Shown here one piece after another: positions 22,171 to 58,696 of a DNA stretch of 64,000 bases. The stretch comes from an uncultured bacterium (GTDB taxonomy: Bacteria; Zixibacteria; MSB-5A5; CAIYYT01). The stretch is taken from NCBI GenBank assembly GCA_963726455.1, contig CAVSCK010000003.1:109118-173117 (forward strand), given 5' to 3'. The notes beneath the pieces are model-generated. The model was not told the DNA's origin. It saw only the letters and a list, made by a program, of their open reading frames with translations, and made no database searches. A program made the translations under genes and the position numbers. Numbering within the stretch: the first letter of the stretch is position 1; each line of letters opens with the position of its first letter.

Positions 22171-22183
22171 AATGTCTCAAATT

Positions 22184-22277: not shown

Positions 22278-22369
22278 GAATGCTGACACTTTCTTTTCGT
22301 TAACAAGACACTCACCGCAACCTGGACTGCGAAAGTGGATCGACTTATGCGCGGAAACTGATCCGATAT

Positions 22370-32054: not shown

Positions 32055-33065
32055 TTAAGTGGGACAGCCGGTCCCTTTGGACTCACGGACCGTTTCGTCG
32101 CGCAATTTCTTGAATGTTATATGGTTAGTGAATAAGAAGTAAATGCCAAACGCAAAAACCGGGGCAACATCCATGAAGTGAAGAGCGATGCTAAATGCCG
32201 CAGCTTCGGCATGGGGAACATTAAACAACGACAGTGCCCAGATCACGGCAAGTTGGAATGAGCCCAGATTGCCAGGTGAAACCGGAATCAACAACAGAAA
32301 CGAATTAATGATTACGATCACGATTCCCGCCCAGAACGGTACCTTGAGGTCAAATGCTTGAATCAACAGTATCGAAATGGCGATGTGGAAGATCCAGACG
32401 AGAATCGAATAGAAGCCGACACTGACAACACCACGGCTGCTACGCATTGAAGCGATACCATGTGACATTGAAGATGTCCACTTCTCAAGGCGTATGTATA
32501 GCAGGGGAAATCTGCGGCGAATCGTCTTCTTGCCAAAATATGCCAGCCCGCGCTCATATCGCATGAGCAGTATCAGCACCAGCAAAGATGCGCCGACCAC
32601 CATCGCGGCGTAGACTTCCGCTTCCCTAACCCAACTGGGAAAGGCAAACATGAAGGAAGCGACGTAAACGAGCAAGACCAGGGTAATACTGTCGAAGAGC
32701 ACTTCCATGGCGACTGTGGTAAAACAGAAGGTTTTGGACAGCCCTTCCTGCTTTGCCAGCATGACGATGCGTCCGGCCTGCCCGGTCAACACCGGTAGCG
32801 ACAAGTTGATCATTTGCCCGACATGGAAAAGCGCGAAGACGCGTGTCTTCGAGATGACTTTGACATCGCGAATGAGCGCGCGCCAGCGCATACCTTTGGC
32901 CCAATTCATTAGAATCGAGCTGCCGACTGCACCGAGAAAGTAGAGCGGATTGATCCTGGTGAGCGTGCGCCAGAGTTCGTGGACGTCGACTTTGTAGAAG
33001 CTGGCAAAGAGCAGGCCGATAGCCACCAGGACGCCGATAAGCTTTTTCCAGTCGAAGATCTTCAC
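32055..33065 (-). CDS. Integral membrane protein, UPF0104 / lysyl-phosphatidylglycerol-synthase-like TM-domain family (flippase-like)
   Basis: A polytopic membrane protein with the pattern KIFDWKKL...INPLYFLGAVGSSIL..., typical of this family. Confidence 0.55.
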   Translation of the reverse strand: MKIFDWKKLIGVLVAIGLLFASFYKVDVHELWRTLTRINPLYFLGAVGSSILMNWAKGMRWRALIRDVKVISKTRVFALFHVGQMINLSLPVLTGQAGRIVMLAKQEGLSKTFCFTTVAMEVLFDSITLVLLVYVASFMFAFPSWVREAEVYAAMVVGASLLVLILLMRYERGLAYFGKKTIRRRFPLLYIRLEKWTSSMSHGIASMRSSRGVVSVGFYSILVWIFHIAISILLIQAFDLKVPFWAGIVIVIINSFLLLIPVSPGNLGSFQLAVIWALSLFNVPHAEAAAFSIALHFMDVAPVFAFGIYFLFTNHITFKKLRDETVRESKGTGCPT

Positions 33066-33187: not shown

Positions 33188-33931
33188 TCAGATTTTTTCG
33201 ACGGCGGAGATCTTAACCCAACCTTTTAGCTTATTTGCGAAAAGACCGAGGTAGTAATCCTGTTTCTGATCGAGGATGTCGAACGTAAGTCCTTCGTGTC
33301 CCTCAAACTGAAGTTCAAAATCGCTGCCGGGGCCCGAGAGGATTTCGGTTTGTTCAACGACAATCACGCCTTCGTCCACGAGATAATTGGATTTCAGAAC
33401 CCAGACCATCACGCCGAACGACAGCAGAGTGACCAGACCGAGTATCACCACCGGTGAATTTCCGATTCGCGCCAGAACTCCGAGGCGCTTGAGAGCGAGA
33501 AAAGCGAGCAACAGCAGGAAGGATACAAATGAGATCAGAAAATATTGATTAGGGTGCAGCGTGGCGAGGCCGTTTTCGACCTTCGTAGAGAACGGGTCAA
33601 CTTGTGTGGCGTCGACTTTATCGACGCAGAATTGTTTGACAAAGGCAAGATTCGTGCGAATATCGCCGTCATCCGGGCTCATCCGTTCGGCACGGCGGAA
33701 GTTGGCGATCGCTTTGCCGATATGTCCGGCCTTGTAGTATGCGCATCCGGCATTGTAGTATACCGGCACGGAAGCGAATCCCTGGTCAATGATCTGCTCG
33801 AATTTCTGCGATGCTCCGGTGAAATCGCCCTGATCATAAAGATGAACACCCTCCTGAAAATCCTCAGTTGCCCCTGCAAACAAAATTGCAGGCAGAAGTA
33901 GAATAACAAACAGCGCCAGCAATTTCTTCAT
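33188..33931 (-). CDS. batE: BatE-like TPR/SH3 protein (aerotolerance operon)
   Basis: A signal peptide (MKKLLALFVILLLPAILFAG), TPR-like repeats and a C-terminal SH3b-like domain. It is the last gene of the Bat locus. Confidence 0.6.
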   Translation of the reverse strand: MKKLLALFVILLLPAILFAGATEDFQEGVHLYDQGDFTGASQKFEQIIDQGFASVPVYYNAGCAYYKAGHIGKAIANFRRAERMSPDDGDIRTNLAFVKQFCVDKVDATQVDPFSTKVENGLATLHPNQYFLISFVSFLLLLAFLALKRLGVLARIGNSPVVILGLVTLLSFGVMVWVLKSNYLVDEGVIVVEQTEILSGPGSDFELQFEGHEGLTFDILDQKQDYYLGLFANKLKGWVKISAVEKI

Positions 33932-35751
33932 CAACGGGTTTTCTCCAACTCCACGATCAGCTTTTTCGCCTCTTCCCATAACTGCGTCATCTGGCCCTTT
34001 TCCTTGCCGCCCGGGGCAAAGCGCCCAAAATCGCACTGCTGCAACAGATCGACAAGCTGGGCAATCAAGGCGTCACTCTGCTTGCCGGCCGCAAATTCCT
34101 TGATTTTGTCGAGGGTCAGACCGTACGCGGGGAGATTATATCTATCGGCGAAATAGTCGATCAACGAATGACTTATCTCGGCATAATAGGCGTCAGGGTC
34201 GCCGCCTTCGATAAGAGCTTTGGCCTTGGCAAGCCGGGTTTCGGCCATTTTGCGTGCCTGGCGCAGGCGGCGGAAACCGACGTCACTCTGCAAACGCTCT
34301 TTGTGGCGCTGACGCGTCAGAACGACGACGTAGCCGATCACCGGTAGCAGGTACATTGCGAGCAAGAACAGCGGACTCGCAGAGATGGGCTCCGCCCGGC
34401 GCGAACGCAACTCGCCGATGTCCGATTTCAAGTAGCGAATATCCTTGGCGGCGAGATCGATGCGGTTCGTCTGCAAATTCTGAACCTGGGATGCGAAGCG
34501 ATCCTTGGATGGCGCCACCTCGATCTGAATCGGATCAGAAGCCAACGTCTTGTATGTCCGCGCTTGCGGATCAAAGAAGGAAAAATTCAAAGCCGGAAGC
34601 TGATAGTTGCCGGCGCGTTTCGGAATAAACGCCTGATCGAAGGTCTTGGTGCCGCCGACCTGATAATTCACTTTTTCGATCTTCTCGTTGTCGCCGGCTT
34701 GATAGGTGCGGAAATCAGGCAGTTCCGGAACCTTGGGTATATCGACGCTCTTGATGTTACCGATACCGGTGACCTTGATATGCATAGTTACCGGCTCGTT
34801 CACTTCGATCTTGTTTTTGTCAACTGTGACGGACATCTGATATTGCCCCACCGCTCCTCCGAAGTCGGCCGGCTTTCCTATCTCCGGCAATGGCAAGGTG
34901 ATGATTTTGATCGGGTCGGAAGACAGCGTCAGGCGTTTGCCGCCGCCGAAGAAATTAGGCCAATTGCGATCGAATACGGAGAATGGGTCCCTGGAACTTC
35001 CGTCGTCGACGACCACTCCCATCTGAGAGGCGCCAATCGTCTGCGTCCCGGGAGATGTAGGAAACATCGCGGTCTTGGATTCCATGATGTTGTAATCTTT
35101 GCCGCCATAGGTCTCCTGACCGGTCCGCCACTGTCCAAGGTCTTCCGACCAAAATCCGGTGCGTTGCGGCGCCTGATAGTCGGGGTTGTTGAGCAACTGC
35201 ACGCGCCAGTACAACTTCATCGAGAGCGTGACCTGCTGATTGACATAGACGGTGTCTTTGTCGACTGTCGCGCGGAGCAGCAAGTCATCTTCGCTAAGCG
35301 CTCCCCGCTGGCGACTTGGCTGACGGCTGCGGTTTTGCGGCGCCTGGCGTGACTGCGGTGGCATCGCCACCGGATTGACGGTCACGGAGATTTGCTGCGT
35401 CTTGTAATTGACGCCTCCGATTGCCAGCGCAAACGGCGGAATCATGAGACGGCCAGTGCGCGAGGGAACGAGCGTAAAGTTGTATTGCTTTGACTGCGTC
35501 GTCTTGCCGTTGATCCAGGCAACACTCGACGACGTTCCAGAAGTGTATACCTGCCAATCGGGAAGCTGACTGATGTCCAGGGCAGGAATCTTCGATGCCT
35601 CGCCCTTAATCTCAATCGTGAGTTGGACCGTCTCACCCTCGGAAATTTCATTGCGATCGACATACGCATTGACCGTGGTCTGAGCCAGGGAGGGCAATGA
35701 CATTCCCAACACCAGGAGCGCCCCCAGAATCATCACAGCCAAATTTTTCAT
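33931..35751 (-). CDS. batD: BatD-like oxygen-tolerance protein
   Basis: About 606 aa, with a signal peptide, BatD N-terminal domain, TM segment and C-terminal helical region. Confidence 0.7.
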   Translation of the reverse strand: MKNLAVMILGALLVLGMSLPSLAQTTVNAYVDRNEISEGETVQLTIEIKGEASKIPALDISQLPDWQVYTSGTSSSVAWINGKTTQSKQYNFTLVPSRTGRLMIPPFALAIGGVNYKTQQISVTVNPVAMPPQSRQAPQNRSRQPSRQRGALSEDDLLLRATVDKDTVYVNQQVTLSMKLYWRVQLLNNPDYQAPQRTGFWSEDLGQWRTGQETYGGKDYNIMESKTAMFPTSPGTQTIGASQMGVVVDDGSSRDPFSVFDRNWPNFFGGGKRLTLSSDPIKIITLPLPEIGKPADFGGAVGQYQMSVTVDKNKIEVNEPVTMHIKVTGIGNIKSVDIPKVPELPDFRTYQAGDNEKIEKVNYQVGGTKTFDQAFIPKRAGNYQLPALNFSFFDPQARTYKTLASDPIQIEVAPSKDRFASQVQNLQTNRIDLAAKDIRYLKSDIGELRSRRAEPISASPLFLLAMYLLPVIGYVVVLTRQRHKERLQSDVGFRRLRQARKMAETRLAKAKALIEGGDPDAYYAEISHSLIDYFADRYNLPAYGLTLDKIKEFAAGKQSDALIAQLVDLLQQCDFGRFAPGGKEKGQMTQLWEEAKKLIVELEKTR

Positions 35752-35759
35752 GATCGCGT

Positions 35760-36719
35760 CTACCAATCCTTGTCAGTCCGCGGTTGAGTGCCAAACTGAA
35801 CTTTATAGCGCCCCATTTGTTTCTGCAAATTCTTTTCGTCGCCGGAAAGTGAATTCAGAATCCGATCGGCGTCCTGCTTACTCATTTTCTGCTGCTGGCC
35901 TTTGGCGCGCTGCTGTTGTTGTTGCTGTTGCTGATCCTGGCCGCCATTTTGTTGATCCTGTTGTTCCTGCTGTTGTTGATCCTCGCCCTGCTGCTCCTGC
36001 TGTTGATTCTGCTGGTCTTGCTTATCTTGATTGCCTTGCTGTCCCTGCTGCTGTTGTTCCTGCTGTTGCTGCTGTTGTTGCTGATCTTGTTGCTGCTGCT
36101 GAGACTGCTGATCTTGTTGATTCTGCTGCTGTTGTTGCTGCTGCTGTTGCTGATCCTGATTCTGCTGGTCTTGCTGCTGTTGTTCTTGTTTGTCCTGCTG
36201 TTGCTGCTGCTTCTGGTCCTGCTGTTGATTCTTTTGTTGCGCCTGTTCTTTCAGCTTAACACGCGCCAGCTCGAGATTGTACTTGGCGTCGGCATCGTCA
36301 GCATTGATTTCGAGACACTTCTTGTATGAGTTGATTGCCTCCGCATACTTCTTCGCGCGGAAAAGAGCGTTGCCGGAATTATAATACGCATCGGCTTGAA
36401 ACTGGGGATCCGTATTGTTCAACGCCCGCAGATAGCGCTGGGCAGCTTCCGGGTATTTGCTCTGATTGAAAAGCACAGAGCCAATGTCGTAATCGAGCAC
36501 AGGCTGCTGAGGTTTCTCAACTTCAGCATCGCGGTAGGATTTCAACGCATCATCCATCTTGCCGTCGGTGAAGGCCTTGTTTCCTTGCGTAGTCAGTTTG
36601 CGATAATCAGCGCGGGCACTCGAAGTCGATATCACCATAAGTGCAGCCGCAAGCACTAATGCGAGGCAGGACGTGAATCTACCCGGTGCGGGTTCGTGAC
36701 AAGGTTCAGACTGTTTCAT
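35760..36719 (-). CDS. batC: BatC-like TPR protein with an extreme Gln/Asp-rich low-complexity tract
   Basis: TPR repeats (YYNSGNALFRAKKYAEAINSYKKCLEINADDADAKYNLE) followed by roughly 110 residues of (Q/D/E)n. Confidence 0.7.
   Translation of the reverse strand: MKQSEPCHEPAPGRFTSCLALVLAAALMVISTSSARADYRKLTTQGNKAFTDGKMDDALKSYRDAEVEKPQQPVLDYDIGSVLFNQSKYPEAAQRYLRALNNTDPQFQADAYYNSGNALFRAKKYAEAINSYKKCLEINADDADAKYNLELARVKLKEQAQQKNQQQDQKQQQQQDKQEQQQQDQQNQDQQQQQQQQQQNQQDQQSQQQQQDQQQQQQQQEQQQQGQQGNQDKQDQQNQQQEQQGEDQQQQEQQDQQNGGQDQQQQQQQQRAKGQQQKMSKQDADRILNSLSGDEKNLQKQMGRYKVQFGTQPRTDKDW
35916..36250 (-). repeat. Imperfect CTG/TTG (CAG/CAA in coding sense) trinucleotide-type repeat tract of about 330 bp, encoding the poly-Q region of BatC
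   Basis: Visible as ctgctgttgttgctgctg... on the plus strand. The antisense ORF is poly-Leu. Confidence 0.8.
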
Positions 36720-37740
36720 CGGAATTCGACTCCTTGCGGCGCGATCTTCTTTCCGAGATCAATACCTCAGCACCCAAAAATATTACGGCAAAAGGAAGCA
36801 AGTATTGATAGCGATCTTCATACTGCGTCATCATCATACCCTTCTGTTCCTTCTTATCCATCGAGTTGATGTCTTCGTAGATCTGGTCAAGCGCGATTTC
36901 GCCCGCAGACGCGTGATAGTATCGGCCATCCGTTTCCGCGGCAATGTCCTGCAGCGACTGTTCATCCAGACGCGTCAGCACGAGTTCTCCGCGTTCGTCT
37001 TTCTTGTAGCCGATCATGTCGCCGCGGTCGTTGCGGAGCGGGATCGGTTCACCCTCCGGCCTGCCGATACCGATGGTATAAATCTTGACTCCCTGAATCT
37101 TGGCGTCTCTGACAGCGCTCTTGATGTTGCCGCCGAAGTCCTCGCCGTCCGTAATGATGATCATGACCTTATTCTTGCGTTCCTTCTGATCGAAATTGCC
37201 GGTCGCTGTCTGGACAGCCGAACCGATGTTCGTTCCGGGAGCCGGAATCAGATCGACATCCAGCACATCGACAAACATCTGTGCCGCCGAATAATCGAGA
37301 GTCAGAGGACACTCGGTGAAAGCGGCTCCGGAGAATGCGACCAGCCCGACGCGATCCCCCTTCATGCGCGAAATCAATCCGCGCACCTCCTGCTTGGCTT
37401 TTTCCAACCGGTTGGGTTTCATATCCTCGGCCAACATTGACTTGGAGCAGTCCACGACAATCATGACGTCCTGCCCTTCCCTCTTGAGCATGACCATGTG
37501 TGTCCCATACTGCGGCCGTCCCAGCGCCAGTACCAGAAATATCAGCGCGAGAAACAGCAGAACGAATTTATAGCGCCGCTTGATCGGCGAAAAATTGGCG
37601 GTCAATCCAGCGATGAGCCGTTTGTCGGCAAACAACTCCAGCAGCCGTCGCTTCTTGCGCGCGCTCCAGAGAAAGAAGAGCCCCACGAGCGCGATTGCCA
37701 AAAGCCCGAAATAGAGATTTTCCGGAGTGGCGAATCTCAT
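36706..37740 (-). CDS. batB: BatB-like von Willebrand factor A domain membrane protein
   Basis: Two N-terminal TM segments, then a vWA MIDAS motif (VVDCSKSMLAEDM). Confidence 0.8.
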   Translation of the reverse strand: MRFATPENLYFGLLAIALVGLFFLWSARKKRRLLELFADKRLIAGLTANFSPIKRRYKFVLLFLALIFLVLALGRPQYGTHMVMLKREGQDVMIVVDCSKSMLAEDMKPNRLEKAKQEVRGLISRMKGDRVGLVAFSGAAFTECPLTLDYSAAQMFVDVLDVDLIPAPGTNIGSAVQTATGNFDQKERKNKVMIIITDGEDFGGNIKSAVRDAKIQGVKIYTIGIGRPEGEPIPLRNDRGDMIGYKKDERGELVLTRLDEQSLQDIAAETDGRYYHASAGEIALDQIYEDINSMDKKEQKGMMMTQYEDRYQYLLPFAVIFLGAEVLISERRSRRKESNSDETV

Positions 37741-37785
37741 TATGTCTCCTCAATCATTGTACACCCGAAACATCCCGATTATTCC

Positions 37786-38772
37786 TTACGGCAAACGCCG
37801 CCAAACGGTTTCCCTCAACAGCAATTCCAGCAGCAATCCCAAAGCGCCAATCATCAATAGATAGGGGAAGAATTCGTTGTATTGCAGATACTCTTTTACC
37901 TTGATTTTGGTCTTCTCCAAATCGGATATCTGGTCATAGATATTCTTCAGCATGTCCGCTGATTTGGCGCGGAAATATTTGCCGCCGGTGATATCAGCAA
38001 TCTGCTTAAGTTGGTTTTCATCCAGTTCATTATTAATGAAGATATAGCGCTTGCCAAAGATCGGATCTTCGATGGGATACGGCGCCTGTCCGAGCTTTCC
38101 TACGCCTACTGTATAGACGCGTATTCCCAGCGCCTTGGCGATGTCGGCTGCCGTTTGCGGATCGATTTCGCCGGCGTTGTTGATGCCGTCGGTCAGCAGA
38201 ATGATGATGCGGGATTTTGCCTTGGAATCGCGCAGGCGATTTACAGCATTGGCGATGCCCATACCGATAGCCGTACCGTCTTCAACCATCCCGAAATCGA
38301 CTTGATCGACGAATGTAAGCAATACACCATAGTCAAGCGTGAGCGGACACTGCGTAAATGCCTGCCGCGCGAAAACGACCAGCCCAATGCGGTCGTTCTG
38401 CCTGCCCTTGACGAAGTCCTTGATAACTTCTTTGGCGACGAAAAGGCGATTTTGCGGTTTGAAATCCTCGGACTTCATACTAGTCGAGATATCAAGCGCC
38501 AGCATGATGTCGATTCCCTCGGAGGTGACTTCCGTAGTCTTTTTGCCTGACTGTGGCCGCGCCAGTGCCAATATGAAGAATGACAGCGCCAACAACCGCA
38601 AGATCGGCAGGATTCGGCGGCGCTTGGCACGCGGAGATGCCTGTGCGCCACGCAGCAACGTGATGTCAGAGAATTTGATCGCAGCTTCCCGCCTTCTGCG
38701 AAACGCGAAGAAGCCGAGCACCGGTATCAGCAGCAACAGCCAGAGATAGATCGGACTGGCAAACTGAAACAT
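37786..38772 (-). CDS. batA: BatA-like von Willebrand factor A domain membrane protein
   Basis: N-terminal TM segments, then a vWA MIDAS motif (LALDISTSMKSEDF). Confidence 0.8.
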   Translation of the reverse strand: MFQFASPIYLWLLLLIPVLGFFAFRRRREAAIKFSDITLLRGAQASPRAKRRRILPILRLLALSFFILALARPQSGKKTTEVTSEGIDIMLALDISTSMKSEDFKPQNRLFVAKEVIKDFVKGRQNDRIGLVVFARQAFTQCPLTLDYGVLLTFVDQVDFGMVEDGTAIGMGIANAVNRLRDSKAKSRIIILLTDGINNAGEIDPQTAADIAKALGIRVYTVGVGKLGQAPYPIEDPIFGKRYIFINNELDENQLKQIADITGGKYFRAKSADMLKNIYDQISDLEKTKIKVKEYLQYNEFFPYLLMIGALGLLLELLLRETVWRRLP

Positions 38773-39726
38773 CTACTCGGTCTCCTTGGTCGTTGCAAAC
38801 GGCAGTGAACGAGTTTGCATGACAAATTCCTTGGCGGTGATAAAGTCAGTCTCGATGTCGTCGGTTGTCGGGTGATATTTGGCGAACTTGACAATATCGC
38901 ATTCTTCAAGGAAATCGTGAATAATGTGTTCTTCCTGGCTGTCCAACGATAACTTGCGGAATTCGAGGATAATTTCGAACGTCGTGCGTTCCAGCGCGGA
39001 GATGCCGTAGCGGCGCTCCAGATAGCGGCGGAAGATGTCAGACAACTGCAAATAGAATAACTTGTATTCACCGCGAGCGATCAGGTCAGACTCTTTGAGT
39101 TTGGCCAATTCCTCCAGCGCGATTTCCCATGGCAGGCGCAGGTCGGCGACCGAAGTAGTCAGGTCAATCGGCTTCCTGGCCCGTCGGTACAGCCAGAAGA
39201 ACACGGCGCCGCCGATTAATAGCGCCGCTCCCAGGATCACCCACAGGGTCGGAAATTCACGCGGGAAAGTCTTTTGGGGCTTCAGCGGTTTTATATCCGC
39301 GCCTTCCTCTCCGGTCAACAGCGAATTGACCTTGATCGGCAGCGGATCGGTGGCGATGGACTTGACCTCGCCCGACGGCGTGCGATAGTGAATGGTGATC
39401 GGCGGTATTTGATAATCTCCGGTCGTGAAGGTCGTGATGACAAACCCTTCGGTAGTAGTGCGCACTCCGCTCTTGACGTTGACCTGCCGCGGCTTGTAGT
39501 CTTTCACCTCGAACGCGCCCAGGTTCGTGCCTACTGTCAGTGAATCGACTGCCAGCGAAGTATCGGAGGTAATTGTGACGGTATAGAGTATCCTGTCACC
39601 AATCGTAATAGTCTGTTTATCGATGTTCGACGACACGCTGATCTTGTCTTGCGCGAACAAAGCGGAACTGAGAAACAGCAACCACAAAATCGTCAGTAAT
39701 CTAAAGCGGCTCACGGTTCCTCTCAT
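38773..39726 (-). CDS. Short BatD-like / DUF4381-like membrane protein. It is a paralog of the protein at 43087..43998.
   Basis: It has a signal peptide, a BatD-N-like beta domain, one TM segment and a cytoplasmic helical tail (...ERRYGISALERTTFEIILEF...CDIVKFAKY). The tail aligns with the protein at 43087..43998 (...ERKYDARLSGFTSADLLRWL...CESVKFSSG). Confidence 0.55.
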   Translation of the reverse strand: MRGTVSRFRLLTILWLLFLSSALFAQDKISVSSNIDKQTITIGDRILYTVTITSDTSLAVDSLTVGTNLGAFEVKDYKPRQVNVKSGVRTTTEGFVITTFTTGDYQIPPITIHYRTPSGEVKSIATDPLPIKVNSLLTGEEGADIKPLKPQKTFPREFPTLWVILGAALLIGGAVFFWLYRRARKPIDLTTSVADLRLPWEIALEELAKLKESDLIARGEYKLFYLQLSDIFRRYLERRYGISALERTTFEIILEFRKLSLDSQEEHIIHDFLEECDIVKFAKYHPTTDDIETDFITAKEFVMQTRSLPFATTKETE

Positions 39727-41171
39727 ATAACTGCGTATCCCCAATCGTAGACGCGAGATGATAATTACTGTCGAGTGTGCCTTGCCACTCGGGATAGACT
39801 TTGTAGTCAACCAATACCAGTTTTGGTCGTTGTTGTTGCAGGGCGCTGACTATGTCGCTGTTCGTTAACAGATGGTTTTCTGAGTAGCACGATTTGTCGA
39901 TCTTCAACGGAAAGTAGAAACCAACATGCTCGGAACCGCGCAACTGCGGGCGATCTGACAATGCCGGGTAACCGGCCCATTCCGACAACAACGTGTCCTG
40001 AATTGATGTTCGAGTTTCGATTTCGCCAACGACATCGCGCAAGTGGGTCAACGTAAAGCGTTCATCTCTGGGACGCGGCGCTACGATGAACAGGTAGACA
40101 AACGGCAGCATTCCAACGGCATATAATAACCCCGCCGAACGCCGCAGCGGTTTCAGACCGGGAGTACGCACGATGAACACAAAGACCGGAAGTGCCGCGA
40201 TAATCAGATACGGAACTGCTTCCTGAAAATATTGAAGCAGTACCGGCGTGGGTATCAGGTATATCAAACTGATGAGTGCCGCGAAGAGAAGTGATCTGCG
40301 ATAGATCGAGCTAAGCTCCACCAACCGATGCTTCAACAAATACCAACTGCCGAGCAGCGCTCCCAAGAGCAGAATCGTTTGCGGAAGTGCGAGAAATGTG
40401 CCAAACACTTTCACCTTGTGAAGGATCAGCGCCGAGAAGGGCGTGATCGGCTGACGGTATAGATGAAATACCAGATTGCTGAACAGAAACTGCGACGGCG
40501 CCTGAAGAAACAACACCAGCGATGGGATCGTCGGAATCGCCACACCGGCCGCGATGAACGCCAGCGCCCGCGACAGTGGAACACCTTTCTGATTCGACGC
40601 GCGAAGGAGAAAGTAGAGATACACCGGCATAAGCAGGAGAAAGATCGACCGGAAATTGATCGCGGTGGACAAGAACATAGCCGACAAAAACAGGTTTCGG
40701 TCAGATCTTGTCATTCGAGTTTTCCACTCGCAATAAGAACATAAACGCAAGCAGCAGGAACAGGTCGACAAACGCATACGGCTTGAACACCGAATGCCAG
40801 GCGAGGATCATTCCGTTGGCCGCTATCAGCACCGCTGCAATCAAAGCAGCATTGTCATCCCGCGTACTCTCCCTGACTGTGCGGAATGCAAACAAGGTCA
40901 GCAATAAGCCGGCTACGAGAGATAGTATTCGTAACAGAAGCAGTGAAGTGATACCCCAGCCGGAAATCATGGCTGACAGAAGCGGCAGTAACGGCGCCTG
41001 CGGATAGAAGAAATCCTTGTAGAGAGTCATGCCGTCGGCGACGCGTTGGGCTGCCGCCAAATAGAAGCCCTCGTCGCCGTCCGCCAACCGGAAAAAGACA
41101 AAGACAGACGACAGTGCCGCCTGACTGATCAACACCAGAAACAGCAACTTCTGTGTTCGACCCAGTGTCAC
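39701..41171 (-). pseudogene. ArnT/PMT-like (GT39/GT83-type) polytopic membrane glycosyltransferase. It appears split by a frameshift near positions 40700-40740 into ORFs 40701..41171 and 39701..40777.
   Basis: The N-terminal ORF carries ...RLADGDEGFYLAAAQRVADGMTLYKDFFYPQAPLL..., resembling the ArnT/PMT N-terminal region. The downstream ORF is highly hydrophobic. Both overlap in different frames. Confidence 0.5.
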
Positions 41172-42049
41172 CGGCGGTACCTCCGCTCGCGCTGCTTGAA
41201 GAAGGCCGACAACGGGAAGATGTAATCCTGGCCGGTGGTAAGCTGGATATAGTCGAGATTCATGCGGCGAAAGGCCCGCTCCAGTTGGTCGTTCAATTCC
41301 ACGGCGCGATTCGAAAATTCTTTGCGAAATAGCAGATCGGCAGTATCCACGGTGATGATCTCGCCGGTTTCAGCATCTTCAAAGTCGATCATGCCGAAGT
41401 TTTCCAGCTTCGATTCGCGCGGATCGGATATTCTAATAGCAATCAGGTCGTGCCGGCGGTTGGCGATCATCAGGTCACTGGCATAGCCGGAACTGAGAAA
41501 GTCGCTGATGAGAAAGACAACTGACTTGCGCTTGATGACGCGATTCAAGTATTCGAGCGCCGCACCGATGTTGGTCGATCGGCCGGTGGGCTTGAAATAG
41601 AGAATTTCGCGAATCAGCCGCAAGACATGCGCTCTTCCTTTGCGCGGCGCAATGAACTTCTCCACCTCATCGGTGAAGATGATCATGCCCACCTTGTCGT
41701 TGTTATTCGTCGCCGAGAAAGCCAGCAGTCCGCAGATTTCGGCGGCCATTTCTTCCTTCAATTGTGTCCTGGTGCCAAATTGTCCCGACGAGGATGCATC
41801 AACGAGCAGCATCACGGACAGCTCTCGCTCTTCGCGAAACTTCTTGACGAACGGCATGCCGGTTCGGGCGGTGACGTTCCAGTCAATCAGGCGGACGTCA
41901 TCCCCCGGCTGGTACTCGCGCACTTCCTCGAATTCCATGCCGCGTCCGCGGAAGCTGGAGTGATATTCGCCGGCGAAAACGTCGTTGACAAGTTTTCGGG
42001 TCGTTATTTCGATGCGGCGGATTTTCTTGATGATATCTTTAGGAAGCAC
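41168..42049 (-). CDS. DUF58 domain protein (vWA-like), the usual partner of MoxR ATPases
   Basis: EFEEVREYQPGDDVRLIDWNVTARTGMPFVKKF and LLVDASSSGQF, typical of DUF58. Confidence 0.8.
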   Translation of the reverse strand: MLPKDIIKKIRRIEITTRKLVNDVFAGEYHSSFRGRGMEFEEVREYQPGDDVRLIDWNVTARTGMPFVKKFREERELSVMLLVDASSSGQFGTRTQLKEEMAAEICGLLAFSATNNNDKVGMIIFTDEVEKFIAPRKGRAHVLRLIREILYFKPTGRSTNIGAALEYLNRVIKRKSVVFLISDFLSSGYASDLMIANRRHDLIAIRISDPRESKLENFGMIDFEDAETGEIITVDTADLLFRKEFSNRAVELNDQLERAFRRMNLDYIQLTTGQDYIFPLSAFFKQRERRYRR

Positions 42050-42052
42050 CGC

Positions 42053-43039
42053 TTACGGAACCTCAACCTCGTTGAACACCTTGGTCACAATCGCCTCGCT
42101 GTCAACTTCCTCGGCCTCGGCTTCATACGATACGATAACTCGGTGCCGCAATACGTCCATGCCGATGTTCTTGACATCATCCGGCGTGATATAGCCGCGC
42201 CCCTTGAGAAACGCATGCGCCTTGGATGCCATGGTCAAATAGATGGTCGCGCGAGGTGATGCGCCGTAATCAATCAAATCCTTGATCTTAAGATTGTAAG
42301 CTTCGGGATTGCGCGTGGCCGAGACGACATCAACGATGTATTCCTTCACCTTGTCATCGACATAGATCTTGTTCATGACGTTGCGGGCATTGATGATGTC
42401 CTGCGGCGTAATTACCGGTTTGATGTCGAATTTCTGCCCCACCGTCATGCGGTTGAGGATTTCGAGTTCTTCGGCCTTTGAGGGATAAGTGATTCTTAGC
42501 TTGAACATGAAGCGGTCAACCTGCGCCTCGGGCAGCGGGTAGGTGCCTTCCTGCTCGATGGGATTCTGCGTCGCCATCACCATGAACGGATCTGGCAGCG
42601 GGTACGTGGTATCGGCGATCGTAACCTGCCGCTCCTGCATCGCCTCCAGAAGGGCGGACTGGACTTTCGCAGGGGCGCGGTTGATTTCGTCGGCCAGAAT
42701 CAGGTTAGCGAAAATCGGCCCTTTTCTAACCGTGAACTTGCCATCGGTCTGGGAATAGATCATGGTGCCGACGAGATCGGCGGGCAGCAAATCGGGTGTG
42801 AATTGCAGACGCTGAAAATGCGCCTGAATTGCCTGGCACAGGGTCTTAATGGACAGAGTTTTGGCCAATCCCGGCACACCCTCGACCAGCACATGGCCGT
42901 CCGCCAGCAGCGCCATCATCATCCGGTCGATCAGGTATTCCTGGCCAACGATGACCTTGGCAATCTCCGCTTTGAGACGCTGAATAAACTCGTGTTGCTT
43001 CTCTACTTCCGCTTGAATTTCCTTAATATCCTGATTCAC
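42053..43039 (-). CDS. MoxR-family AAA+ ATPase
   Basis: Walker A motif GVPGLAKT, Walker B motif ILADEINRAPAKVQSALLEAMQERQVTI and the overall MoxR pattern. Confidence 0.9.
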   Translation of the reverse strand: MNQDIKEIQAEVEKQHEFIQRLKAEIAKVIVGQEYLIDRMMMALLADGHVLVEGVPGLAKTLSIKTLCQAIQAHFQRLQFTPDLLPADLVGTMIYSQTDGKFTVRKGPIFANLILADEINRAPAKVQSALLEAMQERQVTIADTTYPLPDPFMVMATQNPIEQEGTYPLPEAQVDRFMFKLRITYPSKAEELEILNRMTVGQKFDIKPVITPQDIINARNVMNKIYVDDKVKEYIVDVVSATRNPEAYNLKIKDLIDYGASPRATIYLTMASKAHAFLKGRGYITPDDVKNIGMDVLRHRVIVSYEAEAEEVDSEAIVTKVFNEVEVP

Positions 43040-43086
43040 CTTTTATCTCCCGAAGGTAAGTTACATATGGTCTATGTTTTACGGCA

Positions 43087-43998
43087 TCATTTCAGGAACA
43101 GTTCCACGATTCTTTCCGCGCGGCCGGCGGCTTGTGAGCCATCCTGGACATTTACGGTCCCGGATGAAAATTTGACGCTTTCGCAGAAGTCAAACAGGCC
43201 TTTACAGGCCGAGAGCCCCTCTTCATCGAGTCCTTTTTCTGTGAGCCAGCGCAGCAAATCTGCTGAAGTGAATCCGGAAAGTCTGGCGTCGTACTTGCGT
43301 TCGACCAGGGAAGTTATCAAACGCATGGCCTCAGACGCAAAGGCGCGGTAGTCCTGCCGGTCGGCGAGCTTCTTGACCTCGGCGAAACGCTGCCGGTATT
43401 CATCGCGCCAGTCCGAAACGGATTGCTCCGGCTGCGTCCTCACTTTTCTTCGTCTTGCCGCGGCCGCCGCGATAATGATGATAATTGCTGCACTAAAGAT
43501 GATTATCACGGGCGAGTGCGATTTTCCTGCTTGTTTGGGCTGGGCAATTTCGACGGTGATCGGTTCGGAAGCCAGCGTGTCAAAGACCGAGCCGTTCTGA
43601 AACTCAACCTTGAATGACGGAATCGTTATCGACCCACTGCGCCCCGGAACAAGCTCATAAAGATAATTGCGAACAATTATATCCCCCTGCCGTTCGACAC
43701 TGCTGCCCGAACCGCCGATTTGCAGGCCGATGATATTCGGTGGCGGCAGAGGCGTAGTCTTGACGGCAGGATCAGAGACCTTGACTTCAAGCTGAAGGTG
43801 TAACTTGTCTTCAAAAGCGGCGCTGAGTTTGTCTACCGATGCCTTGAATGACATTTCGGCGAAGACAGCGTTCGCCGACAGGAGCATAGCAGCTATAATG
43901 AATGTGACAACTTGCATTAACAACTCTATGAATTTTACGCGATTCCCCGTGTTGGTTCCCATCCTAATGTGTTGCACTCTTCCCTTTCGTTTCCTCAC
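43087..43998 (-). CDS. Short BatD-like / DUF4381-like membrane protein, paralog of 38773..39726. The true start may be an internal Met.
   Basis: Same architecture and conserved C-terminal motifs as the 38773..39726 protein. Confidence 0.5.
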   Translation of the reverse strand: MRKRKGRVQHIRMGTNTGNRVKFIELLMQVVTFIIAAMLLSANAVFAEMSFKASVDKLSAAFEDKLHLQLEVKVSDPAVKTTPLPPPNIIGLQIGGSGSSVERQGDIIVRNYLYELVPGRSGSITIPSFKVEFQNGSVFDTLASEPITVEIAQPKQAGKSHSPVIIIFSAAIIIIIAAAAARRRKVRTQPEQSVSDWRDEYRQRFAEVKKLADRQDYRAFASEAMRLITSLVERKYDARLSGFTSADLLRWLTEKGLDEEGLSACKGLFDFCESVKFSSGTVNVQDGSQAAGRAERIVELFLK

Positions 43999-44027: not shown

Positions 44028-44861
44028 CTAGGTGACCCCAGCTACAGTCAGCGCCCCTAATGCGGGCAGCATGACGACTTTCAGGGCAATCGACGCCCGC
44101 GCCATATTGTCTCGTCCATCCCGGAACACGAACAGGACGAAGATTAGCGACAAAGGCACGTTTACCGCAAGCGAAATCAACAGGAGATAGGCCGTTGACA
44201 GATGCAACAGGACATACCCAAGGTACGATACCACAATCAGCAACGCAAACGCTGTCGCCGCAAAGACGCGTGCCGTCTTGTTCCCCCAGACGATCGGAAT
44301 TGTTCTGCGGCCGGCAATCCTGTCGCCTTCGACATCTTCGATGTCTTTGATGACCTCGCGCCCGAAATGATAAAGGAAGATCAGCGCTCCCCCTCCGATC
44401 AACAGCCAGCGATGTTGGGAATCAGGATTCGTCAGGAACCCTCCCAACACGCAGGCCGAACTGCACAGAATCGCCACCCACAGGTTTGCGATGACCAGAT
44501 AAGACGACAACTTGAAGGAATAGAGAAACAGCGCGGCGGCAAATACTGCGAAGAACAACCAGACAGAGAGTTTCGATCCGTAAAGCGCGACGGCACCCAG
44601 GACGATGCACAGCAAGGCCGCGTTTATTCCCTCCCAGGCAGAAAGCTTGCGCGACGGAAAAGGGCGATTCGGTTTGTTGATCTTGTCGGCGCGGAAATCG
44701 CAGAGGTCATTGACGATGTAACCATATGAGGCAATGAAGAACGTTGCGATCGCGATTCCGATGGGCAATGCAATGCGTCCCGATCCGAGCGCAATTGCCG
44801 GAATCAGAGTCAGTGCGGCAATGGCGCCATTCAGAGGACGCATCATGGTGAGCACCGCCAA
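44028..44861 (-). CDS. UbiA-family aromatic/isoprenoid prenyltransferase
   Basis: NDxxDxxxD motif (VNDLCDFRADKINKPNRP) plus multiple TM helices. Confidence 0.8.
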   Translation of the reverse strand: MAVLTMMRPLNGAIAALTLIPAIALGSGRIALPIGIAIATFFIASYGYIVNDLCDFRADKINKPNRPFPSRKLSAWEGINAALLCIVLGAVALYGSKLSVWLFFAVFAAALFLYSFKLSSYLVIANLWVAILCSSACVLGGFLTNPDSQHRWLLIGGGALIFLYHFGREVIKDIEDVEGDRIAGRRTIPIVWGNKTARVFAATAFALLIVVSYLGYVLLHLSTAYLLLISLAVNVPLSLIFVLFVFRDGRDNMARASIALKVVMLPALGALTVAGVT

Positions 44862-44869
44862 TAGCTTTG

Positions 44870-46489
44870 TCAGAGTTTGCCCTCCAAACCCAAATGTACC
44901 AGCATGCGTCCCAGCTTCTTTTCCTCGCCCATCGAAATATCAAAACGGAACGAACCGGCAGACGTCATGACAATCATCCCCACGCCAAAACCTGCCAACG
45001 GTCCGTCCTTTGACTTGGACTTAATGTAGGCATTATCACTGAACAGATGCAACATCAAGTTGCCGGCGGCATACCATTGCAGTTCGGTCGATCCGATGAA
45101 ACCCAGTCTGGCGAGATAACTATTTTCGCGATAGCCGCGAACCGTTTCGACACCGCCAACAGGTATCAACTGATCGATGGGAATAGCAGCGAAATCAGAC
45201 GTGATCTGAAAGTATTGAGCGCGCTGAAAGAGAATCAGATTGTGCCGCAGCGGCAACCAGATTTTGGCATCGGTGTTGAGATTACTGGAATAACCGTTGT
45301 TAGACACACTGCCGCTTTCGAATGACTTGCGATAAGCCGAGGTGACTTGCTGCGTAACAAAAGCGCCGCGCGTCGTGCGATGAATGTCGTTGCGACGATC
45401 ATATTGAACGTTCAGGTCAACTGCCAGCAGACGCGCCGACGGTGACGTCTGATTTTCCTGTGGCGTAATCTTGTTCCAGCGTATCGCACTACCGAGACTC
45501 CAATTCTCACTCAAGTGACAACTGGCTCCGGCCGTGGCGCTGGTGCTGTTGAAGGAAGAATCGCGAGCTTCCTGTGACAATGTGGCGCGCAAGTCGAGCG
45601 GATAGTCATCGAAATACGGCAACAGCGCGTTGAGGTTAAGTTTACGCGACAATTGATTCTGGCGCGACCAGATGAAGCCGAATTCTTCCCCGCGGCCAAA
45701 TGCATTGATCAGATTCACCGACACCTGGCCGGCGATCGTGTTGTCGGGGTTGAGATAGGCAAGTCCGTCGAAGGCGAGGTTGCGTTCATCACGCAAGGGC
45801 AGCGCGACATTTACGGTGCGGTTGAGACTTTCATAGGTGAGAGACGCTTTGCCTGATGGTTTGCAGTGGCGGAGATGACCCAGCGTTCGCTCGGACGATT
45901 CCAAATCGGTCTCGCGAAATAAGTCGCCGGAATGAAGAGCCAACCGCTTGCGCAATGGCTCTGGTTTCGTGGTCCTGATGCCGGGAAAATCAACATTGCC
46001 CACTGTGACAAGCGGCCCCTCAACTACAAGCATGTGTGCAATGATGATCGCATCGGAAATATCAAGATTCTTGATCTCTGCCTGTGCGAACGGGTATCCG
46101 TTGTTAGCATACAGGCGAGTCAACTCCTTTGTCAACTGCTCAAGACTCGATTTCGTAAGCGGCGCTGAGTGCGGCAACTCCTGCAGCAATCGCGCCGCGG
46201 TGGAGTCGGCAAGTCCTATCAGGCGAAGTTCGGAACAGGTGAAACGTTTGCCTTCGGTTATCGAGAACAGCGTATCGGCGGCGGTGATCTTCGCGGAAAC
46301 TTGTCCGAGGAAGTAGCCGTCTGCGGCATAGGCAGCACTGATCGACTTGAGATGCTGATCTACGTCACCCGGTTGCGTGCACAATTCCATCAGTACTGCG
46401 CTGCGGAAATGATGATTGCCTTCAAAGCGTACAGCCGCGTTCGCGCACGAATACAGTACAAGTACGGCGATCAAGATTCTTCGTGTCAT
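44870..46489 (-). CDS. Omp85-family outer membrane protein (surface antigen D15 / TamA-like; POTRA plus beta-barrel)
   Basis: A signal peptide, a POTRA-like N-terminal region and a C-terminal beta-barrel with alternating hydrophobic residues. About 539 aa. Confidence 0.65.
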   Translation of the reverse strand: MTRRILIAVLVLYSCANAAVRFEGNHHFRSAVLMELCTQPGDVDQHLKSISAAYAADGYFLGQVSAKITAADTLFSITEGKRFTCSELRLIGLADSTAARLLQELPHSAPLTKSSLEQLTKELTRLYANNGYPFAQAEIKNLDISDAIIIAHMLVVEGPLVTVGNVDFPGIRTTKPEPLRKRLALHSGDLFRETDLESSERTLGHLRHCKPSGKASLTYESLNRTVNVALPLRDERNLAFDGLAYLNPDNTIAGQVSVNLINAFGRGEEFGFIWSRQNQLSRKLNLNALLPYFDDYPLDLRATLSQEARDSSFNSTSATAGASCHLSENWSLGSAIRWNKITPQENQTSPSARLLAVDLNVQYDRRNDIHRTTRGAFVTQQVTSAYRKSFESGSVSNNGYSSNLNTDAKIWLPLRHNLILFQRAQYFQITSDFAAIPIDQLIPVGGVETVRGYRENSYLARLGFIGSTELQWYAAGNLMLHLFSDNAYIKSKSKDGPLAGFGVGMIVMTSAGSFRFDISMGEEKKLGRMLVHLGLEGKL

Positions 46490-49400
46490 TGGAACCTCGA
46501 AATCAATTCCGTGCGCAGGAAATAACGCCCCGGTTCGCCATGGCGAATGTCGCCCTGGCCGGTCAAACGAAACGAGAAGTTCTCGGCGAAACTGAAATCA
46601 ATCAGGATCGTGCCGCCGAAGTTCGCTCCGGTTGGAAACCCATCCGCCATCTGCAGCAGAATCGGCCGATTTGCGGCTTCGATCACCTGCAGCATGAAGA
46701 CCGTTGTCTCGATTCGCCCCCTGCCGACAAGGTTATAGTTCACCTTGGGAGTTATCCTAAGAGTCGTGGCGCGCAACGACATGGAATCCGAATTCTCACG
46801 ACCGATCTCGACGGTGGCGCCCATTTCCCAGAGTCCGCGAAAGTGCGAGCCGGCGGTGATCAGCGACCGCCTGTGAACGGTGAGATTGTAACGGCCGAAT
46901 TGTTGGTCGGACAAATTCTCGGCCTCACCGGAAATTTCGACAAAGTCGCGTTCACCTAAGCGTTGATTGAAAAGCAGTTTGAACAGCTCGTTGCCGTTGG
47001 CCTGGGGGTGCAAGACATCAATCAGGTTATCCTCACTGCGAATTCGATACGAGAATTCACTGCGCAGGCCGATTGCGCGATCATAACGTCGATAACGATA
47101 TTCGTCACTGCGCTGGCGGAACCGTTGAACTGCGCCGAAATACGCGAGCGAAGGCAGCAGCCAGCGTGTTTGGAAGCTGGTCATGTCATTTCCGATCTCG
47201 TGCAAACTTGTCTCATAGCGCAGGGAAGTCCCGGCAATCAGGAAACTCTTTGCCAGTTTGCTCAGGTCGGCGTTGATCTGAACGCGTTTTTCTGCCTCGA
47301 CCGACGGCGTCAAGGTACCCACTTGTTCGGTGACCAGTATGTAGTCGCCGTTCGATTGCGGCAGATAGACGGAATCAATCAGTACATAATCGCCCTTGCC
47401 GCTCTCGACCTTGAGATAAGTCTTGTTGGTCTGGAAACTTCCCAACCGGCTCAACCGCATATTGGCGTTCAGGTCGACAACACGCGCGATCTGTGGTATA
47501 TCGAGATTTAAGAGCCCGCTGTGATAGGTGGTCTTCTTCCCCGTCGCATCATTGAAGCGGTTGAATGAAGCATTCAGATCGACCTTGCGACTCTTCGCGA
47601 AAGTGCGATTGACATTCAATCCCAGCGTCTGTTTGCGATCCACCATATTCCATGAGTTGAGATTCTGCCAGTTCTCTCGCTGCCGAGCGGTCACGGAAAT
47701 CCCCGCGTATTCCGTTCCAAATTCGATTTCACGTTTGCTGGCGTATGTAAGCGGCTGTCCCACCAACGCAAGCTTGCGATTGTCATAGTCGACTTTGGCT
47801 GTGAGCGCGAATGGTTTAATGTCGAGCCGGTAGGTGGGCTTGATCTCGAAAAGACGATTCGACGCCAGTGAGATCCTTCGAGGACGCGTAACTCAGGTCA
47901 ACCCCGATTTTCGAGTTCGCCACCTGAACCAGTTGCGTCGAGACTCCGGCGCGCCGCGACTCGAAGCCGCTTTTCTCCGAAGTATATCCGCCTTCAATTT
48001 TCGACCGATCATGGCTCCCCAGACTGAAAGTCATGTCGCCCAGATAGCGCTGGCGGTCGCTGAGTTCCTGCTTCTGGCGCTGCCAGAGGTAATTTTCGTC
48101 TACATAGTCGAGCCGACCCAAACGGGCGAAGCCGGCTGGTAAATACTCCGCCGACAGATTGCCCTTCACTTTCTGAGATGTACTCGCGTACGCCGCACCA
48201 AAGAAACCTGCCGCAGTTGTGTTCTTGCTGTTACCGTCAGTGGAAAAGCGGTTGCGGTCGTACGACGAAACGCCCACCTCGGTCGACAACTTCAACGTTC
48301 CCGTCGGAGCGTAGTCAGATTTTGCCACCACGACCTGAGATGCTTCCGGCATGGGCAAGGTTCTGACGGGCAGGTAATTGCCTCTTCCTCTGCCGGCAAA
48401 CTGATAGCGGCCCCCGCCTAGATAGAGGTAATCCCCGCTGTCAACCTGCGTAAACGTTACACTGTAATCACCATGGCGATCTCCCGCATAAACGAAGACG
48501 GTATCGCTCAGAGAGTCGACCTGCATCGTGTAGTCACCATTTCCCTGACCTACAGAGCGCGCCCCCGGAACCACCGCTTTGGTAGGATCGTTGCCTGCCG
48601 AACGCAGAGCAGCGATATCGGTCTCGCTGAGCGTGAAGTCTTGCGGGTCGCTTCCCGCGGCAGTCAGGCCCGCATATCCGATGCCGATCTGTGCCTTGCC
48701 GTCACCAAGACTATCCGTGACGGCGCCGGTAACGAGTGTCTTGCGATATTCCAGGCGCTGATATTCGAAATCGACTCTGACACGGTCTTGGTTATCGATG
48801 GCAGTACGGCCGGTGAAATAGAGTTCGCCGCGCGTGTAATCGAGGTAATAATCATGGTCGCGTCCGCGAGTTATTGTCGCGCCGTTGAGCCAGACCGTCT
48901 CGGAGTTTTCGATTACGGCGATACCGGATTCACCGTTCTTGCCCTGCAGGCGGTACGGGCCGTTAAAGCCGTCAGTGGTGGTGAAGTTGTATTCAGTATA
49001 GTTGCCGGGTGGAACGGAGACGGATGATTCCACGGTTGCGCGGCCGGTATGGTACTTCACGCCCATACCCTGTACATTGCGGCTCATAGACAGATATCGG
49101 AAACGATCTTCCTTGAGCTGGTAGCTGCCGAAAACGCCGTTGAGATGCTGGGACTGAACTTCCAGATAGACGTTGTCCAACTCGGAGAATCTTTTGGTCA
49201 CCATCTGATTGTCGCGCAAACCGCGATCAGAAAACGTGCCCTTGACAATTACTCCGCGGCCGATATCGCCGGAGAGCGTCAGGGCGAGTCCCTGCGACAG
49301 GTTCGTCTGGCCCTTTTGGGAGACGTCGGCATAAAACGACTTCGAGCCGGAGACTTTGAGATTCGCGGTGGGCGCGGTCAGTTCTCTCGACGACGTGACC

Positions 49401-49804
49401 GGAGCCGGAGCCAAATCAGCTTCGTTGTCGCCCGTACTCGACAGGAAATCGTGTAGCGCGTAGCGACGGCCGATTATATCATAATTCAGAAATCTCACGA
49501 CTCGAATTGTGTCGCAAGCGATCTGTCCCGCCGTCAGCGTGATGACACTGTCATTGGATACGAAGTCACGTCCGCGTCTCAGACTGTCATTCCCGCAAAT
49601 CAGGATGACCGAGGAATCACCCGCGGAGGCGTATACGAAATTGACGGAGGAATCCTTGAGTGCAATACTGGTGACGATGACGATTGAAGAGACGGATGCT
49701 TGCGGATTGAGCGGCGCCGCCTGCAATCGCAGCGACAGGCATATAAGACCTACGAGGATTAAACCGGCAATAAGCGCGCGGCCTTCATTTTGCAGCAACT
49801 TCAT
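46486..49804 (-). pseudogene. Large (about 1090 aa) beta-rich envelope protein with an N-terminal signal anchor (TamB/AsmA-like, or an outer-membrane beta-barrel). It is split by a frameshift around 47767..47815 into ORFs 47816..49804 and 46486..47766.
   Basis: Continuous amphipathic beta-strand character runs across both ORFs, and they read in different frames. The gene is immediately upstream of, and co-directional with, the Omp85 gene. Confidence 0.5.
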
Positions 49805-55505: not shown

Positions 55506-55508
55506 CGC

Positions 55509-58658: not shown

Positions 58659-58696
58659 TCTTAAGACTCCTTGTATTTGGGTAAAGACAAAATCAT

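Follow-up and report, generated by a model that had tools for sequence, protein, structure and literature searches.

Why should a glycosyltransferase gene lie in the middle of a Bat operon, and does its product work with the Bat proteins or only travel with their genes? Bat operons, named in 1999, occur widely, in Bacteroidota, spirochaetes and Francisella as well as in many uncultured phyla, and to our knowledge they have neither an assigned molecular function nor a known client. The question is raised by a locus at positions 43998 to 33188, on the minus strand, of a 64-kb window (the whole stretch of DNA that was analysed, from contig CAVSCK010000003.1 of the uncultured Zixibacteria assembly GCA_963726455.1; all positions refer to this window). 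Our analysis identified this locus as an envelope operon of the Bat type (MoxR, DUF58 and vWA proteins) in a Zixibacteria-type bacterium, with a gene for a predicted membrane glycosyltransferase of the GT-C fold between DUF58 and a short BatD paralog that precedes batA.

A glycosyltransferase gene inside a Bat operon

Open reading frames (ORFs) were called in the window and searched with Pfam and NCBIfam profiles. The locus consists of eleven closely packed reading frames, all on the minus strand, with an even guanine-plus-cytosine content throughout; adjacent genes either share 1-26 nt or are separated by less than 50 bp. Their order is mini-BatD 1, MoxR, DUF58, the GT-C glycosyltransferase, mini-BatD 2, BatA, BatB, BatC, BatD and BatE, the two mini-BatD proteins being short BatD paralogs. 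The initial annotation had proposed moxR, DUF58, batA, batB, batC (TPR plus poly-Q), batD and batE in the canonical order, and all of these genes were found where it had placed them. MoxR (42053-43039) is an AAA+ ATPase of the MRP subfamily (AAA_3 219.9 bits, AAA_lid_2 72.3 bits), separated by 3 bp from the vWA-like DUF58 protein (41168-42049; DUF58 267.9 bits, VWA_2 61.1 bits), which has a MIDAS-like DASSS motif in its translation. The stop codon of the DUF58 gene overlaps the start of the glycosyltransferase gene by 4 nt (GTGA), the start of mini-BatD 2 overlaps the glycosyltransferase stop by 26 nt, and mini-BatD 2 in turn abuts batA.

The remainder of the operon encodes the vWA, TPR and Ig-like Bat components. 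BatA (37786-38772; BatA_N 56.3 bits, VWA 87.5 bits; VWA_BatA_Lepto 237.6 bits, below the cut-off of 380) has an N-terminal double-transmembrane anchor, a vWA domain bearing the MIDAS motif DxSxS and a transmembrane helix at the C-terminus. It is followed by BatB (36706-37740; VWA 85.6 bits, BatA_N 27.4 bits; VWA_BatB_Lepto 150.8 bits, below cut-off); both proteins match PF07584 and PF00092, and the MIDAS motifs DISTS and DCSKS are readable in their translations. BatC (35760-36719) combines a signal or transmembrane helix, TPR families (TPR_BatC_Lepto 64.5 bits) and a long Q-rich tract. BatD (33931-35766; PF13584 149.2 bits in three stretches) has three detected Ig-like stretches, a transmembrane helix and a cytoplasmic helical domain, and probably starts at 35751, where its alignment to the 608-aa BatD of the related locus L001 begins. 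The TPR membrane protein at the BatE position (33188-33931 in an ORF that extends to 34036; 247 aa; TPR_2 35.3 bits) has its ATG at 33931, sharing 1 nt with the batD stop, and its L001 homolog has 246 aa; the domain search detected no SH3 domain in it, and one is present in the BatE homolog of locus L091.

The Q-rich, low-complexity tract of BatC (approximately residues 160-275, after the TPR domain) is unusually long. Between relatives only the TPR part of BatC aligns (residues 19-151 in the alignment with L001), and the total length varies, with 307 aa in L001 and 288 aa in L004.

The glycosyltransferase gene spans 39701-41171 and is divided in the assembled sequence between two hydrophobic ORFs, 40701-41171 (156 aa) and 39701-40777 (358 aa), which the initial annotation had listed as two ORFs. 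They are one GT-C gene split by a one-base insertion. The two ORFs share 77 nt, read in different frames, and skipping one base joins them into a protein of 489 aa, which is also the length of most full-length homologs (range 479-498 aa). When the L001 glycosyltransferase was used as a tblastn query, its residues 1-154 and 159-489 fell in two different frames, and DNA alignment, three-frame translation and the tblastn frames together placed the frameshift at about 40710-40728. The extra base sits in a poorly conserved cytoplasmic loop, a plausible slip being GGAAAAC in the window for GGAAAC in the DNA alignment with L001. Only the 337-aa C-terminal piece of the protein is covered by the deposited annotation (P0001).

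Sequence profiles recognise the protein and its family only weakly. The N-terminal ORF of the window gene had a sub-threshold PMT_2 match (22.2 bits, cut-off 26.1) and a sub-threshold PMT match, while the repaired protein had no PMT_2 match, a TMEM260-like score of 23.6 bits against a cut-off of 24.2, and no match among NCBIfam models. Identity to the window protein was 47-69% for the 27 closest of 28 aligned homologs and 32% for the last (P0032). Across the 29 family members, PMT_2 (PF13231) was recognised in 17 at E<=0.01 (best E 4e-10) and TMEM260-like (PF11028) in 8. NCBI gives one homolog the name 'glycosyltransferase family 39 protein', and JGI labels one 'ArnT-like'. When PDB sequences were searched with the family profile, no GT-C match was returned, and structure comparison alone succeeded. 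An AlphaFold2 model built on the family alignment (pLDDT 89.2, pTM 0.90) was compared with the PDB by Foldseek and matched ArnT first (5f15; E 4e-8, TMq 0.69, identity 11-12%), then PglB, STT3, ALG9, ALG12, Pmt4, DPY19, EmbA, EmbB, AftB, AftD and PimE; all of the top 36 matches were GT-C enzymes or the GT-C-like subunit of GPI-transamidase.

GT-C enzymes carry catalytic acidic residues in their first periplasmic loop. In the family alignment, which has 58 invariant columns in total, the motif D33-E34-G35-F36-Y37 is invariant in all 29 sequences and lies in this loop, directly after the first transmembrane helix (residues 5-27) and a positively charged N-terminus. After the last transmembrane helix, an alpha/beta region of about 120 residues forms a small C-terminal periplasmic domain. 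The earlier reading of the hydrophobic ORFs as ArnT/PMT-like is thus upheld by the fold, by the PMT_2 matches and by the invariant loop motif, and the model identifies the protein as a polytopic inner-membrane glycosyltransferase of the GT-C fold. By analogy with the enzymology of this fold, it would use a polyprenyl-phosphate-linked sugar donor and transfer the sugar at the periplasmic face.

Resemblance to ArnT would also be expected if the protein were orthologous to ArnT, attaching 4-amino-arabinose to lipid A, and were co-regulated with Bat in a stress response. ArnT is its best structural match and one homolog bears the 'ArnT-like' label, but the identity of 11-12%, the missing NCBIfam match and the PDB-sequence profile search argue otherwise, as do the best Pfam signals, which are PMT_2 and TMEM260-like and not an ArnT-specific model. 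There are also no genes of the arn donor pathway nearby, the neighbours being Bat genes. Because of this low identity, the lack of arn context and the lack of a family-level match, the sequence comparison indicates that the glycosyltransferase is not an ArnT ortholog, and we consider the lipid A reading very improbable.

The origin of the frameshift bears on whether the gene is functional here. A true pseudogene, produced by a real one-base insertion in a locus that is reverting to a Bat operon of the kind that has no glycosyltransferase, would be consistent with the frameshift carried by the assembled sequence, with the deposited C-terminal fragment, and with the loss of the gene elsewhere in the clade (loci L100 and L101). 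However, the window protein retains every one of the 58 columns in which the remaining 28 family members do not vary (88 of 89 if one outlier is left out), and therefore shows no decay. Directly upstream of the Omp85 gene, at 46486-49804 on the minus strand, lies a conserved gene of about 1105 aa that has no Pfam match. L001 has an intact copy; the window copy is broken into ORFs of 662 and 426 aa near 47865, beside a short T run, by a second indel 7 kb upstream of the one in the glycosyltransferase gene. Two indels in otherwise intact conserved genes favour assembly or homopolymer error over pseudogenisation, and such an error is the most likely cause; pseudogenisation is unlikely.

A programmed +1 ribosomal frameshift at AUC-UGA-C, regulating the production of the enzyme, would be a further way to reconcile the two frames, as the upstream ORF ends in ATC TGA C and skipping one base anywhere in the overlap gives the 489-aa product. 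Against this, the 28 aligned homologs are without exception single unbroken ORFs and so do not share the feature, the surroundings showed no stimulatory context, and the second, unrelated frameshift nearby points to errors. We regard this explanation as extremely improbable. In practice, both ORFs should be recorded as one frameshifted GT-C gene, and the assembly probably carries indel errors.

Conservation of the block and the slot between DUF58 and BatA

The window proteins were used as tblastn queries in a scan of one genome per species. Contigs with glycosyltransferase homologs at 66%, 49% and 40% identity have the same gene order as the window, and a shared block of Omp85, UbiA, mini-BatD, MoxR, DUF58, GT-C, mini-BatD, BatA-E and LPG_synthase_TM was found in 23 species-level genomes. 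The synteny is kept in loci L001-L007, L011-L022, L026-L031, L035-L037, L041, L043, L093 and L097. MoxR identity to the window is 82-92% in the close clade, and the block persists in distant loci with 65-74% MoxR identity and glycosyltransferase identity down to 30-32%. The genomes that carry it are labelled Zixibacteria, 'uncultured Ignavibacteria', 'Ignavibacteriales' or 'uncultured bacterium'. By contrast, none of about 45 more distant glycosyltransferase homologs (25-30% identity), from metagenome-assembled genomes labelled Acidobacteriaceae, Binatia, Bdellovibrionota, Krumholzibacteriota and others, has a Bat neighbour.

Published accounts of Bat operons from Bacteroides, Leptospira, Borrelia and Riemerella list no glycosyltransferase and name only components of the MoxR, DUF58, vWA, TPR, SH3 and BatD types (PMC3557215, PMC5700661, PMC11834572), and literature searches that paired BatD, MoxR, Zixibacteria or aerotolerance with glycosyltransferase returned nothing relevant. 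These accounts agree with the initial annotation that such a gene is not a standard part of Bat operons. The gene is not a private insertion of this genome either, as it is a conserved feature of one Zixibacteria-type subclade.

MoxR, DUF58 and BatA were concatenated for a neighbour-joining tree, in which a single clade unites every locus that has the glycosyltransferase together with the UbiA and flippase-like (LPG_synthase_TM) flanks; the sister loci, L091 and L092, carry TatA and a SurA-like gene. Locus L100 is nested in the glycosyltransferase clade, with the flanks and a SurA-like gene present and the glycosyltransferase absent. The simplest history suggested by these sequences would be one ancient GT-C insertion downstream of a SurA-like gene, which was afterwards lost on more than one occasion, with the glycosyltransferase itself being lost at least once. 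This history is provisional because the tree lacks support values.

Homologs of mini-BatD 2 led to about 50 more Bat loci (range L091-L172), in which the core is MoxR, DUF58, a variable slot, mini-BatD and BatA-E. Most often the slot is occupied by a TPR plus SurA_N-like protein of about 300 aa; its counterpart in L151 (8769-10013) is a complete SurA/PpiD-like protein that includes a PPIase domain. TatA is sometimes found between DUF58 and BatA in related loci, a GldG-type ABC transporter with DUF4340 sometimes lies between mini-BatD and batA, and one locus has a transglutaminase and an ABC system in the slot (examples: L091 7491-8917, L111 11047-15735, L108 4578-8586). The SurA-like gene and the glycosyltransferase occur together in four loci. 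We infer that the interval between DUF58 and BatA behaves as an accessory slot, and all inserts seen in it are envelope-related. The slot protein of about 311 aa in loci with no glycosyltransferase was considered as a truncated GT-C protein; an hhalign probability of 0.2% ruled this out, and the protein is TPR plus SurA_N-like.

The mini-BatD genes are part of this broader layout. Mini-BatD 1 (sBatD1; ORF 43087-43998; PF13584 27.8 bits, cut-off 24.1) has a signal or transmembrane helix, one BatD Ig-like domain, a transmembrane helix and a cytoplasmic helical tail, and its true start is likely to be 43917, where the 277-aa L001 homolog begins to align, giving a protein of 276 aa. Mini-BatD 2 (sBatD2; 38773-39726 in an ORF that extends to 39810; PF13584 30.2 bits) is identical to the annotated 317-aa protein P0057, and its AlphaFold2 model consists of a signal helix, an Ig-like beta-sandwich, one transmembrane helix and a cytoplasmic five-helix bundle. 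Its profile aligned to BatD residues 303-604 with an hhalign probability of 98% (E 2e-13), and the mini-BatD unit thus corresponds to the last Ig domain, the transmembrane helix and the cytoplasmic helical domain of BatD. The two mini-BatD proteins align with each other at E 1e-4 and 19% identity. DUF4381 (PF14316) was only weakly matched in mini-BatD 2 (17 bits, cut-off 27.2), and a 60%-identical homolog, P0089, has a precomputed PF14316 match.

The presence of two short BatD paralogs flanking moxR and DUF58, noted in the initial annotation, holds, and its description of the locus as expanded on that account is an overstatement, since this is the usual layout of related loci. Of 59 related loci, 44 have a mini-BatD-like ORF immediately before moxR, among them loci with no glycosyltransferase, and one mini-BatD directly upstream of batA with another upstream of moxR is usual in dozens of Bat loci of that kind.

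As a separate observation, the best PDB neighbours of the mini-BatD 2 model are subunits of the eukaryotic TRAP complex, which consist of an Ig-like luminal domain and one transmembrane helix. On the strength of the model this resemblance is probably generic to proteins with an Ig domain and a membrane helix, though the shared architecture is notable.

Possible roles of the glycosyltransferase

We propose that one Zixibacteria-type subclade would have gained the GT-C gene between DUF58 and the mini-BatD/batA pair and then kept it. The enzyme would be made together with the Bat proteins and would act in the same envelope process, either by modifying a periplasm-exposed Bat component or an envelope substrate, or as a client of the MoxR/vWA remodelling machinery. 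The gene overlaps both DUF58 and mini-BatD 2, an arrangement that we read as translational coupling, and its position is retained over a long divergence; on this context a functional link between the glycosyltransferase and Bat is slightly favoured. The vWA domain of BB0173, a BatA/BatB-type homologue of Borrelia burgdorferi, faces the periplasm, and the TPR and Ig parts probably do so as well (PMC5700661). The client alternative has precedents in MoxR/vWA pairs that remodel, or load metal into, a specific client that is often encoded nearby (PMC13036017, PMC9976466).

A stronger form of this proposal would make the glycosyltransferase an integral Bat partner in the subclade, either as a client activated by MoxR, DUF58 and the vWA proteins (for example by loading of its catalytic divalent metal) or as the enzyme that glycosylates the periplasmic Ig domains of Bat or mini-BatD proteins. 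We hold this form to be rather unlikely. If it were true, the variable slot would show that Bat complexes are general platforms for the maturation or export of envelope proteins and not 'aerotolerance' factors. Aerotolerance and stress experiments have given mixed results, positive in Bacteroides and Riemerella and negative in Leptospira biflexa (PMC3557215, PMC11834572).

Alternatively, the glycosyltransferase may be a passenger that landed once, persists by vertical inheritance and shared transcription, and acts on an unrelated glycan or lipid such as lipopolysaccharide, a capsule or an S-layer glycan. The closest relative outside Bat loci, a 32%-identical GT-C protein of Zixibacteria RBG-1 (L024 7553-12348), belongs to a GT4-GT4-GT-C-GT2 cluster just upstream of mraW and ftsI, in the division and cell-wall cluster. 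This context hints at a glycan acceptor with no tie to Bat, and it speaks as much for a glycan or lipid acceptor as for glycosylation of the Bat complex, the idea put forward in the initial annotation. Homologs at greater distance are found in clusters for sugar nucleotides and polysaccharides. Inserts unrelated to the glycosyltransferase occupy the same slot in other lineages. Nevertheless, start and stop overlaps on both sides and a position that stays fixed down to about 30% identity exceed what a neutral passenger would lead one to expect, and the envelope-related nature of every insert in the slot suggests a functional theme. Passenger status is accordingly a possible account, and a somewhat unlikely one.

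Several results, the RBG-1 context among them, weigh against a functional link. Loci L100 and L101 fall in the glycosyltransferase clade and retain the UbiA and flippase-like flanks, and because they lack the glycosyltransferase the Bat core evidently does not need it. A motif scan found no GT2-type synthase of polyprenyl-phosphate sugars in the window, the missing support values of the tree extend to the single insertion that it suggests, and the interrupted reading frame makes the function of the glycosyltransferase in this genome uncertain. Membership of an operon can, moreover, reflect shared regulation only, and both the acceptor of the sugar and any functional tie to Bat are matters that we can only infer. 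The arrangement is nonetheless of value for further work on a system that has long gone unexplained: the glycosyltransferase and the other slot contents (periplasmic chaperones, a Tat component, ABC exporters) offer candidate partners and assays, and together the slot contents point to envelope biogenesis and away from redox chemistry.

Flanking genes and comparison with known systems

The genes that flank the operon on the minus strand are conserved together with the glycosyltransferase-bearing block, Omp85 and UbiA upstream and the flippase-like gene downstream. The Omp85/POTRA outer-membrane protein (44870-46489; Omp85 64.3 bits plus POTRA) precedes a UbiA-family prenyltransferase (44028-44861; UbiA 119.6 bits), whose nearest NCBIfam models are an archaeal-type prenyltransferase (DGGGP-synthase-like, 150.7 bits) and geranylgeranylglycerol-phosphate geranylgeranyltransferase (132.1 bits), both below their cut-offs; it resembles archaeal-type prenyltransferases and not a synthase of polyprenyl-phosphate sugar donors. 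The flippase-like LPG_synthase_TM protein (32055-33065; PF03706 152.2 bits; TIGR00374 flippase-like domain 77.6 bits) is encoded at a distance of 122 bp from batE, possibly under a promoter of its own, with a promoter-like site at 33129-33101. Scans of this kind were uninformative, however, as terminator-like sites were found at chance level (22 sites against an expectation of 20.6) and promoter-like sites showed no more than a modest enrichment. An obligatory trio of UbiA, GT-C and the flippase-like gene was considered and rejected as a strict unit, since L100 and L101 have UbiA and the flippase-like gene and no glycosyltransferase. An anti-phage MoxR-vWA defence system was likewise rejected: PADLOC gave no match for MoxR, DUF58, BatA, BatB, the glycosyltransferase, mini-BatD 2 or BatD, and the bpMoxR score of MoxR (54 bits) is far below that of AAA_3.

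Other parts of the window, all on the minus strand, contain clusters of separate interest. An apparent bacillithiol biosynthesis cluster at 22370-25846 encodes a PIG-L deacetylase (BshB-like), a GT4 protein (BshA-like) and BshC (Rossmann-like_BshC 296.8 bits). At 18935-22278 is a cluster for selenocysteine machinery with selB (621 aa), selA (460 aa) and tRNA-Sec (22185-22278; Rfam 70.9 bits). Upstream of Bat, at 52343-62545, are large genes related to type IX secretion. One product, of 1282 aa, is a PorU-like Peptidase_C25 protein; a second, of 1049 aa, contains a PorV domain; and a third, an FG-GAP protein of 838 aa, carries the sorting domain Por_Secre_tail.

Among characterised glycosyltransferases, ArnT (GT83) of Cupriavidus metallidurans (PDB 5f15 and 5ezm) shares with the window protein the GT-C membrane domain (TMq 0.67-0.69), the small periplasmic domain at the C-terminus and the acidic motif of the first loop on the periplasmic side. 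The two differ in the arn operon context, which the window protein lacks, and in sequence, with 11-12% identity and no assignment to ArnT at that level. The PMT_2/GT39-type (PF13231) and TMEM260-like (PF11028) families are the sole sequence families detected, and the DE of the first loop resembles the catalytic DE of PMT enzymes; the window protein, however, scores below both cut-offs, lacks MIR domains and is much shorter than eukaryotic PMTs. With NorQ/NorD and cNOR, RavA/ViaA and Frd or LdcI, and CbbQ/CbbO and Rubisco, the operon has in common a MoxR ATPase and vWA partners that are encoded beside an enzyme, here a membrane enzyme; the established role of those systems is to insert metal into the client or to remodel it (PMC13036017, PMC9976466, PMC10585395). 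These pairs lack the several membrane vWA, TPR and Ig components of the window operon, and the GT-C protein can be likened to their clients only by analogy.

The closest parallel is with the Bat system of Bacteroides fragilis and its counterparts in spirochaetes, Francisella and Riemerella, which likewise consist of a MoxR protein of the AAA_3 type, DUF58, two BatA_N plus vWA proteins with MIDAS motifs, a TPR BatC, a multi-Ig BatD and a TPR BatE, in an operon-like layout with MoxR near the front (PMC11834572, PMC3557215, PMC5700661). Compared with the Bacteroides type, the window operon differs by the GT-C gene between DUF58 and the gene before batA, by mini-BatD genes on both sides of moxR/DUF58, by the very long poly-Q tract of BatC and by the conserved Omp85, UbiA and flippase-like flanks. 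The parts are all known kinds of gene; together they make up a lineage-specific form of the Bat operon that has apparently not been described before.

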